11,758 nt of DNA from a virus (Duplodnaviria > Heunggongvirae > Uroviricota > Caudoviricetes): IMG/VR virus record IMGVR_UViG_2690316233_000014. The stretch is one strand, 5' to 3'. The notes beneath the pieces are model-generated. The model saw only the letters and a program-made list of their open reading frames with translations. It ran no database searches and was not told the origin of the DNA. This document shows positions 82-5,848 of this stretch, piece after piece (the first letter of the stretch is position 1; every line of letters starts with the position of its first letter). The position numbers and the translations under genes are program-made.

Positions 82-99
82 TCAAGAGACAGGCAACTG

Positions 100-279
100 A
101 TGGGGGCGATGCCGGGCGAAAAAAGTGCGTTTGGTGATGTGGAGAAGGCCGCGCGGGTTTACGCAATTAACGAGCTGATGCCCGTCATGGAGGCCATGAA
201 GCACATCAATGACTGGCTTGGCGAAGAGGTGATCCGCTTTAACCCTTACGCACTGTTAGACACCCAGCCCACATCCTGA
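100..279 (+). CDS. small hypothetical protein, 59 aa (below the ORF-track length cutoff)
   Basis: ATG at 100, TGA at 277-279, weak AGG Shine-Dalgarno upstream. Translation MGAMPGEKSAFGDVEKAARVYAINELMPVMEAMKHINDWLGEEVIRFNPYALLDTQPTS is not low-complexity. Confidence 0.35.
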   Translation: MGAMPGEKSAFGDVEKAARVYAINELMPVMEAMKHINDWLGEEVIRFNPYALLDTQPTS

Positions 280-305: not shown

Positions 306-330
306 CGGGGCATAAAAAATTTATGCCCCG
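306..330. repeat. perfect palindrome CGGGGCATAAA-AAA-TTTATGCCCCG
   Basis: 11-bp arms with a 3-nt spacer, read directly from the sequence. No U-tract on either side, so more likely a protein-binding site or structural hairpin than a terminator. Confidence 0.5.
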
Positions 331-702
331 ACTCTCCAGCTCCTGTATCAATCAGATAATTTCACGACGCTTTCCTGCTGATTGCCATCATCGACAGTCA
401 GACTCTTACGCAATCCCACCGCGTTGATTGCATGTTCTCGCCGTCTCAGTGCGATTTTGACGGCCTTACCTTTCACCCCATCAAATCAAAAGCCCTCACA
501 TCTTTTTCACGCTCAGCGTGAGAAATACAGCCATTCTGTTGTGTCGCTGCGACATCGTTCAGGGGATGCTATTTACCCCCTGAAACGCGGGCTGTTCCCC
601 CGTCACCTGCGCGCAGAAAAAACGCGTTTTTTTGTGCACGCACGGATCCCTGACGGATCCAGCCGCCACGCGGGCCGGAAGGGCAAAAAGTCGTTCAAAA
701 AA

Positions 703-730
703 ATTGTGCAAATTTGTGCACTATTGTGCA
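703..730. repeat. three direct repeats of (A/T)TTGTGCA phased at exactly 10 bp
   Basis: ATTGTGCA 703-710, TTTGTGCA 713-720, ATTGTGCA 723-730. One-helical-turn phasing suggests cooperative binding on one face of the DNA (iteron or centromere-like). Confidence 0.5.
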
Positions 731-737
731 TTGAAAT

Positions 738-760
738 AAACGCTCTGGAGGAGGGCGTTT
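738..760 (-). terminator. putative intrinsic terminator of the 135-aa gene
   Basis: Stem AAACGCTCT/AGGGCGTTT (9 bp including one G-U) with a 5-nt loop, directly after the TAA at 764-766 and followed on the - strand by AUUUCAAU. The + strand side is also U-rich, so it may act in both directions. Confidence 0.4.
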
Positions 761-2621: not shown

Positions 2622-5462
2622 TCATATATCGCTGCGCGTTTTTTGGTCATTTACGGGATTCGTGAGTCCCGTTTCTGTCTGTTTTTTGTTTCCGCTGGTC
2701 AGGCCACCCCGCAGCAGGTCTGCTTTGCGGCTGGCGCGTTCAGTGGTTTCACTGATTCTCTGTGCGTGCTCTGCGTCGCGGATGGCGCGCAGCATGTCAG
2801 AAAGCACGGTAACGGGTGTTTTCATGGTGTTCTGGTCCTGCTGAAGTGTGGATGCCAGGCGTGCGGCGGCTTCAGGGTCTGATGCCCCCAGCTGTGCCAG
2901 ATAGCTGGCGACCGGGTTATGGCGGATCTCCGTGCTGCTTACGCCATGATTACGGCTCAGGCGCTGCCAGAGCTGCGTGATTCGGCTGTCCGGGCGGGTA
3001 TCCGGTTTGCGTACAATTTCAAATCCCTGCGGTGCAATGATGCTGCCGTCAACGTACAGACTGCCGCCCCGTAACAGGTGCTGCATCTGTTGTTCACCGA
3101 TATGCAGGCCGAGAGATTCAGCAGACTCCCGCCATTCTTTAGCGAGTAATTCGTGGTTATCAGGCAAAGGCCGCTGCTGTTTGCGGCTCTGTGTCCAGCT
3201 CTGCATTTCATCACTGCTGTTTTTTGCCTGTTTGTCACGAAGCGAATGCATCAGCGCCCGGCGTTCGTGCCGTTTCAGTGAGCGCATCCATTCGTTCACT
3301 TCAACGCCGTCAGGGAGCTGCGGCCACGGTGCTGGCCGTTCTTCCGGCTGTTCTGTCCCGTTGTTGTCCGTTTCCTGTACACGGGGACAGTTATTGCCAC
3401 GAGTCCAAGGGGCGGCAGGGCCGCCCTGAAGGTCAAAACCATTTTCGCGGGCACTGTCTTCCGCTTCCGGTTTGCGTCTTACCAGCTTCCAGTTATCCGG
3501 ATGCGTGCACACACGGGAGGATTCCCCGATGAGTGGTGACCAGATCCCGTAAATCTGTACGCTCTGTTCGCCGTAATCGTTCAGCTCATCGGCGAGGTCG
3601 TAGGCGGTGCGAATCAGGTAGTCCTTGCGTGGAACAAGTACGCCGCCCTGTTTCTCTATGTAGGTGGCAAAACATCCGGCATCAGCGGCGGCAAGAACCG
3701 CATCCATTGCGTCATCCTTCAGCCGTTGCGGGCCTTCCGGGTTGCGTGCCATCTGGCTGGCAAGGCGGCGCAGTTCACGCCATACCTGGCGGGAGGGGAT
3801 GCCAAAGAACTGGAACTGGCGGACCCGGTGAAGGCGCGCCCAGCCGATGGCGCGTTCCACGCTCTCGGCCATTGATTTTCCGGTTTCGTGGTCAACGCGT
3901 GGCTTGCCCGTTTTCGGGTCGATGCCATCCACGGCACGGCTGTCCAGGTTTTTCCCGATGTAGGTGGCGATGTAGCTGGTCGGTGTGCCTTTTGAGCCGT
4001 CGACGTACTCCGCCTTAAAGCGTGGGGTAATATCATCACCCAGCTCGTGACGATCTTCCTGAATGGCAATATCGCGGGTGTGGGACACAATAGTGTCGAT
4101 TTCTTCCGGATGAGCAAAGACCATCATATGCCAGTGCACGGTGCCGTCATGGTGAGGCTCCACCGTGCGGATGCCATACCAGCGCAGGCCGTCGCGGTTC
4201 AGTTTCTTGCGGACCGCCGCAAAAAACGTGTTAACCAGGTAATCGCTGGAGTCGCGCATGGTGGCCCCGTTCCATTTGGGATTCGGATGACCGTTCTCTG
4301 TTGTGGCGTGGTATTTTGACGGGCAGGTGACAGTCAGAAACACCGCTTTGTCGCCACGGGCTTCGGCCAGAAGTTCCAGCCCCTTCATGGTGGCCATCAT
4401 TTCTGCCTTACGGTGAACCGGGTTACTTACTCCCGCGTAATACACTGTCTCGAGATCAATCGTGAACCCATCTTCGTTTTCCAGCATGAAACTTTTCAGG
4501 AAATCGCGTGTTTTCTCGCGCTGTGCGCGAAACTCGCTTAATGCGTCCTGGCTCAGATAGGGCGATGTTTTTCTGGAAACCAGACAGGCGGCGCGGAGTT
4601 GTTCTTCTCTCCACTCGCAACGTAACAGCCACAGTTTGCGTTTCCACCATTCCGCACAGGTCAGGCGAAGGATTGCGCCCGGCAGCAGCTCCGTGTCCGG
4701 TTCGTTCCTCCGGTCTTTATCTGTTGTCAGTGCGTCATAATGTGGAGGCATGATGTGCAGGTGTAACGCCATGCGGGCCAGCATCTGATACGCCTTCAGC
4801 GTTACATCCATGGTCAGTTCGCCATCGGTCGCGCCAAAGCCATCGCAGAGTTTTTCGAAGGTGCTGCTGAACATCGCCGCCGTCATGGTGGCCAGCGTCT
4901 GTATCTGGTGTTTGTTGAGCTGCGGCAGGTAAAGCAAATCGTCCAGGCGTTCGCGTCCGGCAAGGGAGCGATAACCAGGTGTCAGCCAGCGCCCGTCAGT
5001 GCGATCCAGACGTTCGAATATTTTGCGCAGGGTTCCGCGTGTATAGCGTTCCGCCTGCCAGCTCTTTTTGCCTTTCTGACGATCGGCTTCCTGCTTCTTG
5101 CGCAGGAAAGAGAGGTGGCGGCTCAGAGGTTCTCGCAGATAAACGGGAAGCGCCTTCAGTGTGGCAAAGGCACGGGCTACCGGGTCTTGTTCTGTTGCCC
5201 GGCGCTTACTGATGATGCTCTGTGCCAGCTTTTCACGCTGTCCGGCTTCCTCAAGGGATGCCATGAGTTTTTTACCCATGGCGGATTGTGCGAAAAAGGC
5301 TTCTTCCTTCGCTTCCTGTTCTTCCTGTGCCCTTTTGTCCGCCTCAAGGTAGCAACGGATGGCGCGTTGCAGGTCGGTTTCAGTTTCCTGCCTGCGCTCC
5401 GTAAATCTGGCCGGATCAATAGCTGGTCGTGGTTCATTCCAGCTCCATGCAAACGCACTCAT
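2622..5462 (-). CDS. rolling-circle replication initiator, HUH endonuclease of the P2 gpA / phiX174 A type, about 946 aa
   Basis: HUH motif VHWHMMVF (codons near 4128-4136) and paired active-site tyrosines in SYIATYIGK (YxxxY, near 3960-3976). No Walker A motif, so not a P4 alpha primase-helicase. ATG at 5462-5460 forms an ATGA overlap with the upstream stop; the track start at 5489 is GTG. Confidence 0.85.
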   Translation of the reverse strand: MSAFAWSWNEPRPAIDPARFTERRQETETDLQRAIRCYLEADKRAQEEQEAKEEAFFAQSAMGKKLMASLEEAGQREKLAQSIISKRRATEQDPVARAFATLKALPVYLREPLSRHLSFLRKKQEADRQKGKKSWQAERYTRGTLRKIFERLDRTDGRWLTPGYRSLAGRERLDDLLYLPQLNKHQIQTLATMTAAMFSSTFEKLCDGFGATDGELTMDVTLKAYQMLARMALHLHIMPPHYDALTTDKDRRNEPDTELLPGAILRLTCAEWWKRKLWLLRCEWREEQLRAACLVSRKTSPYLSQDALSEFRAQREKTRDFLKSFMLENEDGFTIDLETVYYAGVSNPVHRKAEMMATMKGLELLAEARGDKAVFLTVTCPSKYHATTENGHPNPKWNGATMRDSSDYLVNTFFAAVRKKLNRDGLRWYGIRTVEPHHDGTVHWHMMVFAHPEEIDTIVSHTRDIAIQEDRHELGDDITPRFKAEYVDGSKGTPTSYIATYIGKNLDSRAVDGIDPKTGKPRVDHETGKSMAESVERAIGWARLHRVRQFQFFGIPSRQVWRELRRLASQMARNPEGPQRLKDDAMDAVLAAADAGCFATYIEKQGGVLVPRKDYLIRTAYDLADELNDYGEQSVQIYGIWSPLIGESSRVCTHPDNWKLVRRKPEAEDSARENGFDLQGGPAAPWTRGNNCPRVQETDNNGTEQPEERPAPWPQLPDGVEVNEWMRSLKRHERRALMHSLRDKQAKNSSDEMQSWTQSRKQQRPLPDNHELLAKEWRESAESLGLHIGEQQMQHLLRGGSLYVDGSIIAPQGFEIVRKPDTRPDSRITQLWQRLSRNHGVSSTEIRHNPVASYLAQLGASDPEAAARLASTLQQDQNTMKTPVTVLSDMLRAIRDAEHAQRISETTERASRKADLLRGGLTSGNKKQTETGLTNPVNDQKTRSDI
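2651..2688 (+). repeat. hairpin repeat copy 2: TTTACGGGATT-CGTG-AGTCCCGT followed by a T-rich tail
   Basis: About 35 of 42 positions identical to copy 1 and 73 bp away. Stem ACGGGATT/AGTCCCGT with one G-U pair. Lies inside the last ~20 codons of the Rep ORF. Confidence 0.5.
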
Positions 5463-5848
5463 GGCTGGTATCCCGTCACGCGCTGCCACTCCTGCGAGAA
5501 GAGGGCGGAAAGGCGGTTAAATTCAGCGGTGTATTCACTCAGCGAGGCACACCCGCCAGCAGTGCGATGCGCCAGCATTGCTGCAAATACGGAGGCCGGG
5601 GAGTCGTAATACGCCAGCAGTGATTCGCCGTGCGGTGTCAGGCAGTGTAACGCCAGTCCGTGTGGTGTGAAATCCACGCGGTAGCAGTCGTCTACTGTGA
5701 AATAAAGGGTGTCTGCATTCTCCGGTTTTGTGGTGCGTGCTCTGTTGTCACGACCACGGATGTAGAGATCAAATAACCCCTGAAGAACGGGAGCCAGACG
5801 GGTGTCCTGTGTGCGCACCCATCTTGTGAAGTCATGAGCGTCAATCAT
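5459..5848 (-). CDS. hypothetical protein, 129 aa, translationally coupled to Rep
   Basis: ATG at 5848-5846, TGA at 5459-5461 overlapping the Rep ATG. Family not recognised. Confidence 0.6.
   Translation of the reverse strand: MIDAHDFTRWVRTQDTRLAPVLQGLFDLYIRGRDNRARTTKPENADTLYFTVDDCYRVDFTPHGLALHCLTPHGESLLAYYDSPASVFAAMLAHRTAGGCASLSEYTAEFNRLSALFSQEWQRVTGYQP

Follow-up and report, generated by a model that had tools for sequence, protein, structure and literature searches.

A conserved non-coding block beside the portal gene of a P88-like prophage is very probably its cohesive-end site

What is the function of a palindrome-dense region, at positions 500-760, in an 11,758-nucleotide (nt) stretch of viral DNA (IMG/VR record IMGVR_UViG_2690316233_000014; the whole of this stretch is referred to here as the window)? 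The original prediction, which was made from the letters alone, was that the region is a non-coding, cis-acting site located where the cohesive-end packaging site (cos) lies in P2-type genomes, and a centromere, an origin, cos and a multi-operator region were all offered as possibilities. The non-coding, cis-acting nature of the region and its location were borne out by the analysis, and the evidence identifies cos among these options. Based on sequence comparison, positions 575-730 of the window (565-730 when compared with the satellite element described below) very probably represent the cos site of a P88-type prophage of the P2 family. Support for this identification comes from the position of the site, its homology to known cohesive ends, the spacing of its short repeats (referred to as boxes), the bounded conservation of the block, its presence in a satellite, and its independence from the neighbouring parMR genes.

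The window was found to be part of a P88-like prophage, which belongs to the genus Xuanwuvirus of the family Peduoviridae (the P2 family). In alignments, approximately 95% of the window matched many Escherichia coli chromosomes with 98% identity; these chromosomes annotate a replication endonuclease, ParM and an integrase. The window also aligned with phage P88 and its relatives. The block at 575-730 sits between the 3' end of the portal gene, Q, with its associated hairpin, and the variable cargo (from 731) that precedes the gpA homologue. The same layout of portal gene, terminator, cos and variable region was observed in P2 and 186, in which the cohesive ends are annotated approximately 190 base pairs (bp) past the portal stop codon, beyond the terminator. 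The interval between cos and gpA is a known hotspot of variable cargo in P2-type phages (PMC9122126). The features of the region, from the portal side onwards, are as follows.

507-521: palindrome TCACGCTCAGCGTGA, in the left (portal-side) arm, outside the block that is conserved across lineages
542-554: palindrome TGTCGCTGCGACA, found in close relatives only
575..588: conserved left flank of the cohesive-end box (ACCCCCTGAAACGC...)
589..607, - strand: predicted 19-nt cohesive-end segment (cosN-like), reading GGTGACGGGGGAACAGCCC, assigned by homology with a register uncertain by about 3 nt
607-616: CTGCGCGCAG, the core of which, TGCGCGC, is kept across lineages
617-632: palindrome AAAAAACGCGTTTTTT (A6CGCGT6), lineage-specific, at the position of the overhang-adjacent inverted repeat of P2, 186 and P4
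632-638: exact TTGTGCA, the fourth copy (proximal box)
634-639: GTGCAC palindrome
642-649 and 653-660: direct repeat ACGGATCC, which holds GGATCC at 644-649 and 655-660
663..673: short GC-rich inverted repeat, CCGC-CAC-GCGG
677..703: GGAAGGGCAAAAAG and TCAAAAAAA, a conserved purine-rich and A-tract segment running into the distal boxes
704-710, 714-720 and 724-730: three copies of TTGTGCA with an exact 10-bp period (distal boxes); ATTGTGCA starts at 703

To the original prediction no cos sequence had been recognisable in this region. This did not hold when the window was compared, as its reverse complement, with the annotated ends of P2, 186, P4 and PSP3: the segment at 589-607 shares homology with the cohesive ends of P2, 186 and phiRSA1, and four TGCA boxes lie at matching distances from it. 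The alignment with the P2 and 186 cos sites that had been suggested as a check gave agreement in both cohesive-end homology and box distances. Of its 19 positions, GGTGACGGGGGAACAGCCC shares 13 with the P2 end, GGCGAGGCGGGGAAAGCAC. It begins with GGTGA, as does the cohesive end of the Ralstonia phage phiRSA1 (5'-GGTGAGGCGGGG...), which was determined experimentally (PMC5694545). At the equivalent position the lineage of Klebsiella phage 3LV2017 type carries GGCGAGGCGGGGGAGCAAG, which matches P2 at 16 of 19 positions and is accompanied by the same TTGTGCA boxes; judged from these sequences, this lineage bridges the P88-type and P2-type cos sites. Within the cohesive-end box, CCCCG.C.C was invariant in all 28 diverged relatives examined. 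A YGCGCGC box flanks the cohesive end in P2, 186, P4, PSP3 and phiRSA1, where it is found on the portal side.

The positions of the boxes were measured from the 5' end of the overhang, and only the corresponding TGCA sites are listed below.

P2: distal TGCA at -123, -111 and -101; proximal at -29
186: distal TGCA at -124, -111 and -101; proximal at -29
P4: distal TGCA at -124, -111 and -101; proximal at -29
PSP3: distal TGCA at -120, -111 and -101; proximal at -29
phiRSA1: distal TGCA at -129, -110 and -100; proximal at -29
Window: distal TTGTGCA at -123, -113 and -103 (704..730); proximal at -31 (632..638)

The box spacing agrees across these six independent cos regions. One or two further TGCA sites were found in the right arm of several of the reference elements, for example at -35 in 186, P4 and PSP3. 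In the left arm (260 nt) of the four coliphage-type elements (P2, 186, P4 and PSP3) TGCA was either absent or present once, far off. The proximal box at 632-638 is the counterpart of TGCATTAAAACC at -29, which lies inside or at the edge of the published 55-bp cos core of P2 and P4 (Ziermann & Calendar 1990, as cited in PMC9594776 and PMC5694545). According to the literature, the homology between P4 and P2 is limited to cos, and in P4 all four boxes were present, with an unrelated spacer between the boxes and the core. Because P4 shares only cos with P2 and yet has all four boxes, the boxes belong to cos. On the sequences compared, the TTGTGCA triplet (spaced 10 + 10 bp) is the P88-group version of the distal TGCAT triplet (10 + 12/13 bp) of P2-family cos sites, a feature that was derived in this analysis from P2, 186, P4, PSP3 and phiRSA1. 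The constancy of this three-plus-one box geometry, from phages of E. coli to a phage of Ralstonia, is regarded as a lead and not as a conclusion. No description of a P88 or Xuanwuvirus cos, or of the distal TGCAT triplet, was found in the literature searched, which did not include Ziermann & Calendar 1990.

Relatives of the site were gathered by scanning IMG/VR, and a single genome for each species, with a pattern in which three boxes had to occur at set distances. This yielded over 120 loci of the TTGTGCA cos type, from E. coli, Enterobacter, Kluyvera, Mixta, Pantoea, Erwinia, Citrobacter, Apirhabdus and Symbiopectobacterium, together with loci of the Klebsiella-phage type; the host range is under-sampled, and the matches listed from the one-genome-per-species scan were mostly unrelated TTGTGCA arrays of Bryobacteraceae. 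When 28 non-redundant relatives (from E. coli, Enterobacter, Kluyvera, Mixta, Citrobacter, Apirhabdus, Symbiopectobacterium and Klebsiella-type phages) were aligned, only positions ~583-730 were alignable, and the flanks to the left of the block and past the third box were unrelated. Conservation of the region among related elements, on which the original prediction had made its reading depend, was thus found across diverged relatives. Consistent with this boundary, BLAST homology of the window to most phage records stopped exactly at 730, the end of the third box. The invariant or near-invariant elements were CCCCG.C.C, TGCGCGC, the T-tract with GTGCA (the proximal box), GGAAAGGG, the A-tract and the three distal boxes. 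Support that is independent of the search pattern was provided by P2, 186, P4, PSP3 and phiRSA1, by phiT5282H, which was found by BLAST, and by the conservation that lies outside the pattern. The 166-bp block was present in 1148 of 5426 complete E. coli genomes (approximately a fifth). It was unannotated in the genome and phage records examined, some of the phage records placing spurious hypothetical proteins across it. The dismissal of the open reading frame (ORF) at 382-804 as spurious was likewise upheld: the ORF had no Pfam or PHROG match, and the pattern of conservation across it was not that of coding sequence.

The TTGTGCA arrays of Bryobacteraceae constitute a separate observation. Metagenome-assembled genomes of Bryobacteraceae/Bryobacterales (Acidobacteriota; L133-L230, for example L161, L162, L168 and L230) contained many copies of paired arrays, in which two or three boxes are followed by approximately 100 bp with GAAAAAACAAATAAG..TTTAATTTCTT and then by three boxes. 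These arrays have the appearance of a repeat element that has dispersed, or of a set of related regulator sites, and are unrelated to P2-type cos.

One of the loci, L129 (1-4500), carried the cos block and no portal gene. This locus was found to belong to an 11-12 kb mobile element for which two chromosomal insertion sites were seen in complete E. coli genomes, adjoining tRNA-Arg/yfdC in one strain and hpt in another. Copies of this satellite were located at ~9400-21900 of L255 (E. coli ETEC1748) and at ~3300-14160 of L256 (E. coli M15), and at least 80% of the 4.5-kb L129 query was covered in 57 complete E. coli genomes. The satellite encodes, in order, an integrase, a helix-turn-helix regulator, an Icd-like protein, small ORFs, an 889-amino-acid toprim protein (P4 alpha-like) and an integrase-like protein; cos is then followed by an Ogr/Delta zinc-finger protein, a 236-amino-acid protein with no family match, a homologue of the P2-family major capsid protein (423 amino acids, 34-35% identical to P88 gpN and to P2 gpN) and MazEF. 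No portal or terminase gene was found in the element. Its similarity to the window was limited to 565-730, at 81% identity, and ended at the third box; GGTTACA iterons were present to the right of cos, separate from the boxes. The retention of exactly this block by a satellite that lacks packaging genes is what a packaging signal predicts, and in this the satellite resembles P4 in its relation to P2. No description of a capsid-encoding, P4-like satellite was found in the literature searched, and a capsid-encoding satellite with a P88-type cos is put forward as a lead, not as a conclusion.

Every palindrome and repeat that had been listed in the original prediction was present in the sequence. 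The GGATCC-N5-GGATCC element was correctly described, but it lies at 644-660 and not at 646-662, a displacement of two positions; the fourth TTGTGCA at 632-638, the palindrome at 542-554 and the cohesive-end homologue at 589-607 had been overlooked. The clustering of these elements is not due to chance. The summed arm length of perfect palindromes in 500-760 was 26, compared to a mean of 1.7 (standard deviation 4.1) over all 261-bp windows of the 11.7-kb sequence; this value was the maximum of the entire window and was reached in one of 2000 dinucleotide-preserving shuffles. A 7-mer that occurs three times at exactly 10 bp was not obtained in any of 5000 shuffles, and no second instance was present in the window. 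The bare number of TTGTGCA copies in the window, five, was unremarkable on its own (39/200 shuffles); it is the clustering and spacing that stand out.

As hallmarks of the site the palindromes fared less well. A6CGCGT6, GGATCC-N5-GGATCC and TCACGCTCAGCGTGA are real, but they were restricted to the P88 lineage of E. coli and were variable even there (AAAAAGCGCGTTTTTTT, AAAAAGGCCTTTTTT). Since they are lineage-specific and variable, they are not part of the conserved functional core. Within 617-632, the T-tract before the proximal box was the only conserved part, and the single-strand fold of this palindrome was unexceptional (z = -1.2); some inverted repeat adjoins the overhang at the same place in P2, 186 and P4. 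The two GGATCC copies are 11 bp apart and each contains a GATC; the pair was lineage-specific, with a single GATCC in the other lineages. A CGCTCAG/CTGAGCG motif similar to TCACGCTCAGCGTGA was found in the left arms of P2, 186 and PSP3, and not in that of P4. An inverted repeat with arms of at least 4 bp was found at the position of 663-673 in 22 of the 28 aligned relatives (for example, CGCCAG..CTGGCG, which 186 and PSP3 also have); this comparison is informal, as the register shifts and the segment is GC-rich.

Several observations weigh against the identification of cos. Identity to the P2 cohesive end amounts to only 13/19 in the sequence comparison, and the TGCGCGC box of the window is on the opposite side of the overhang compared to P2. 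None of the phage records or IMG/VR contigs searched ended at the predicted P88-type overhang, and these collections contained no P88-type physical ends; the only linear record with its ends in this region, LR595891 (LR595891.1, phage P88_4B11), ends at window position 685|686, 79 bp from the predicted overhang. The invariance of the triplet is partly circular among relatives that were collected with a pattern containing it. Binding of the small terminase, gpM, at the boxes is putative, by analogy, as it is for any P2-family cos. Finally, the cos in this copy may no longer serve its own prophage, the portal gene of which is interrupted (see below).

Alternative functions were weighed against the same data. 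The StbB-type ParR (Plasmid_stab_B) and ParM are encoded 0.5-1.8 kb from the repeats, and centromeres typically consist of short, helically phased direct repeats, both of which would suit a parC centromere that is bound by ParR, with ParM segregating a plasmid form of the prophage. The repeats, however, are located downstream of parMR, approximately 540 bp past the 3' end of parR and with another ORF in between, and in R1-type systems parC is upstream of parM. Furthermore, at least 25 related loci have the boxes and a gpA homologue and no ParM or ParR; the box positions match in P2, 186, P4, PSP3 and phiRSA1, phages and elements that never had parMR and in which no par genes are annotated in the arms examined; and the satellite retains the boxes without parMR. 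A better candidate for the centromere is ACGGGATTCTGAAATCCCGT at 2580-2599, directly upstream of parM, with a second copy at 2653-2672. The centromere option of the original prediction is consequently considered extremely improbable for the boxes. A regulatory role, in which the boxes and palindromes are operators, or a promoter region, under a phage regulator, or form a terminator that insulates cos from the cargo, is also very unlikely. In P2 the outermost TGCAT box overlaps the likely -35 element of the old promoter (a sequence reading from annotated transcript starts), but a scan revealed no promoter-like site in 500-760, the P2 late-promoter activator dyad TGT-N12-ACA was absent on inspection of the sequence, the neighbouring cargo gene converges on the region and ends in a hairpin of its own (738-760), and the cargo varies between relatives while the boxes are constant. 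With respect to termination, boxes 1 and 2 on the - strand form a 5-bp stem followed by T7, which was flagged as terminator-like by the scan; against this, the RNA fold of the box region was weak (-7.4 kcal/mol, z = -1.25) and a T-run is missing from the TGCAT counterparts of P2, 186 and P4. A hairpin or terminator function of the palindromes and boxes together was rejected, as the folds were unexceptional (z about -1.2).

A further possibility accepts that the region is cos and places the cut near 667-704, at the ends of LR595891, with GGAAGGGCA and the A-tract as the cleavage site and boxes on both sides. The P88_4B11 record starts and ends exactly at 685|686, and both the E. coli and the Enterobacter lineages retain GGAAAGGG(C/T)A(T/A)AAA. 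This segment was not conserved in the Klebsiella-type lineage, whereas the box at 589-607 was invariant; it matched the P2 end at ~8/19 positions (ungapped, by eye) compared to 13/19 for 589-607; and the known distances of the cos boxes were reproduced only with an end at 589-607. In addition, nt 1 of the record was set by its authors relative to reference genomes after trimming of contig-end repeats. A cut at 667-704 is therefore judged to have only a slight chance of being correct. LR595891.1 was found to be a simple circular permutation, opened between GGAAGGGCA and AAAAG. Its ends were rejected as physical termini, since nt 1 had been set in this manner; the choice of that point is unexplained by the published methods. 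With regard to a replication origin, the satellite has its separate GGTTACA iterons away from the boxes, and the origins of the P2 family lie inside gene A.

If 575-730 is cos, terminase would recognise and cut replicated phage DNA at this site for packaging. The small terminase subunit (the gpM homologue) would bind the TGCA boxes (the one at 632-638 and the three at 704-730, which share a helical face) and would thereby place the large subunit (the gpP homologue) over the G/C-rich segment at 589-607. Staggered nicks there would generate 19-nt 5' cohesive ends (5'-GGTGACGGGGGAACAGCCC, - strand). The final ~125 bp at the right end of the mature genome would then contain the boxes, and the portal gene would be at the left end. 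This scheme is put forward by analogy with cosN/cosB of lambda, and in it the box-binding protein, the exact nick positions, the direction of packaging and any part played by the lineage-specific palindromes are putative.

Comparison of the terminase proteins is consistent with this scheme. P88 gpM was 37% identical to P2 gpM, and the proteins closest to it were those of phiT5282H (63%) and of the Klebsiella phages Kp4850-1 (60%) and 3LV2017 (55%), the next best being at or below 40%. The phages with a TTGTGCA-type cos form a gpM clade, and the gpM proteins of the TGCAT type (P2, 186 and PSP3) were 35-39% identical to that of P88. The agreement between gpM clade and box type suggests, indirectly and from sequence relationships, that the small terminase is the reader of the boxes. 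No match to the IHF consensus (WATCAANNNNTTR) with at most one mismatch was found in 560-760. A wider proposal is made tentatively and with slightly less than even confidence: the four TGCA boxes (at about -30 and about -100 to -125) may be the long-sought 'cosB' that is read by gpM, and the box sequence (TGCAT or TTGTGCA) may set packaging-specificity groups. If so, P88-type phages would have satellites of their own, including the 11-12 kb capsid-encoding element, that classical P2 could not package, and P4-type satellites could not use P88-type helpers.

The genes and hairpins that surround the block are listed below.

94..279, + strand: the final 62 codons of Q, the portal gene (homologue of P2 gpQ), reading towards cos; the translation matches the C-terminus of the P88 portal protein
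306..330, + strand: inverted repeat, a perfect hairpin with 11-bp arms and no T-run, just past the Q stop codon
738..760: hairpin resembling a terminator, where the convergent cargo gene (ORF 764-1171) ends; beyond the conserved block and in the variable region
764-1171, - strand: ORF of 135 amino acids at the cos-adjacent cargo position, convergent on cos
1270-1581, - strand: ParR, Plasmid_stab_B (StbB-type)
1586-2545, - strand: ParM (StbA-type)
2622-5489, - strand: gpA-like replication protein, 955 amino acids

A portal gene is annotated at the position equivalent to 94-279 in the P88 and P88_4B11 records. The hairpin at 306-330 was not called by the terminator scan; its position is that of the terminators tQ of P2 and tW of 186, which are annotated between Q or W and cos. 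The ORF at 764-1171 had no Pfam match; its C-terminal half matched the 67-position profile PHROG 13916, which carries the label 'DNA ligase', and its N-terminus matched phrog_660 (unknown function), and it was found in only a subset of relatives. The copy at 2653-2672 of the repeat upstream of parM is an 80% match located inside the 3' end of the gpA-like gene, and with 2580-2599 it forms a 34-nt direct repeat whose copies are 73 bp apart. The pair could plausibly serve the ParMR module as its parC centromere or as a ParR operator.

Positions 1-92 of the window are the end of the IS4-like insertion sequence ISEc13, comprising the transposase C-terminus (...SLDQEI, then the stop codon) and, at 74-92, the inverted-repeat end AGATCTGATCAAGAGACAG. 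The element is inserted in portal gene Q with its junction at 92/93, and related prophages align from base 93 only. The prophage copy in the window, with its portal gene disrupted, is probably unable to make its own virions, and its cos is intact. Since the portal gene is interrupted, cos in this copy may serve only mobilisation by another P88-type phage. In approximately a dozen P88-like IMG/VR loci (L018, L023, L026, L048, L053, L071, L096, L102, L106, L111, L116 and L126) the portal gene ends ~1070 bp before the distal boxes, compared to the usual ~425 bp, with ~615 bp of extra DNA between Q and cos.

The cos sites of the P2 family and their position are well known, and a cos site in a P2-like prophage is to be expected; that of the P88 lineage does not appear to have been described in the literature searched. 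Its recognition fixes the natural genome ends of P88-type phages and marks the boundary of the cos-adjacent hotspot of cargo and defence genes. The ~166-bp block is a compact candidate packaging signal for the design of cosmids or transducing particles with P88-type helpers, and the constant box positions make the reading of cos by the P2-family small terminase directly testable.

Among known systems, R1-type parC (of ParMRC) shares with the window short, helically periodic direct repeats close to parMR; the window differs in that its repeats are on the wrong side of parM, are too few, and are independent of parMR across relatives. The cos site of lambda comprises the nicking site cosN and the cosB segment with R3-I1-R2-R1 sites for the small terminase and IHF, and yields 12-nt ends. 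The likeness to lambda is one of functional outline only, namely a cleavage site with short small-terminase repeats on one side, of which one is close and the rest are more distant. The two sites have no sequence similarity, the predicted ends are of 19 nt compared to 12 nt, the IHF consensus is absent and the terminase families differ. The site is not of the lambda type.

Within the Peduoviridae, the cos site of the Pseudomonas phage phiCTX has 21-nt ends with a related overhang, AGGCGTGGCGGGGGGACGACT, followed by GCGCGCGCC, and short repeats in its right arm; the phiCTX record annotates 'R4, R5, R6 repeats' across cos. Its boxes (L258/L259) are GCAGAAA at -82, -36 and -27, unlike TGCA at -100 to -125, and box sequence and layout therefore vary between genera of this family. 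The cos sites of P2, 186, PSP3 and P4 have 19-nt 5' cohesive ends and occupy the same position as the site in the window, between the portal gene and the variable region. In common with these sites, the window has an adjacent GCGCGC box, an inverted repeat between the overhang and the proximal TGCA box (~-30), three distal boxes at ~-100, -111 and -123, and a site that is shared with a satellite. The differences are in the box itself, TTGTGCA(A/C) compared to (G/T)TGCAT, in the distal spacing (10 + 10 compared to 10 + 12/13 bp), in the inner inverted repeat (A6CGCGT6 compared to CCGCCC..GGGCGG), in the side on which the GCGCGC box is found, and in that the P2-type ends are known whereas those of the window are predicted from homology. 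Phage phiRSA1 (Aresaunavirus) differs from the window in its beta-proteobacterial host, its TGCAT boxes and its unrelated flanks; it shares the GGTGA start of the overhang and the three-plus-one layout, which thus spans distant members of the Peduoviridae.

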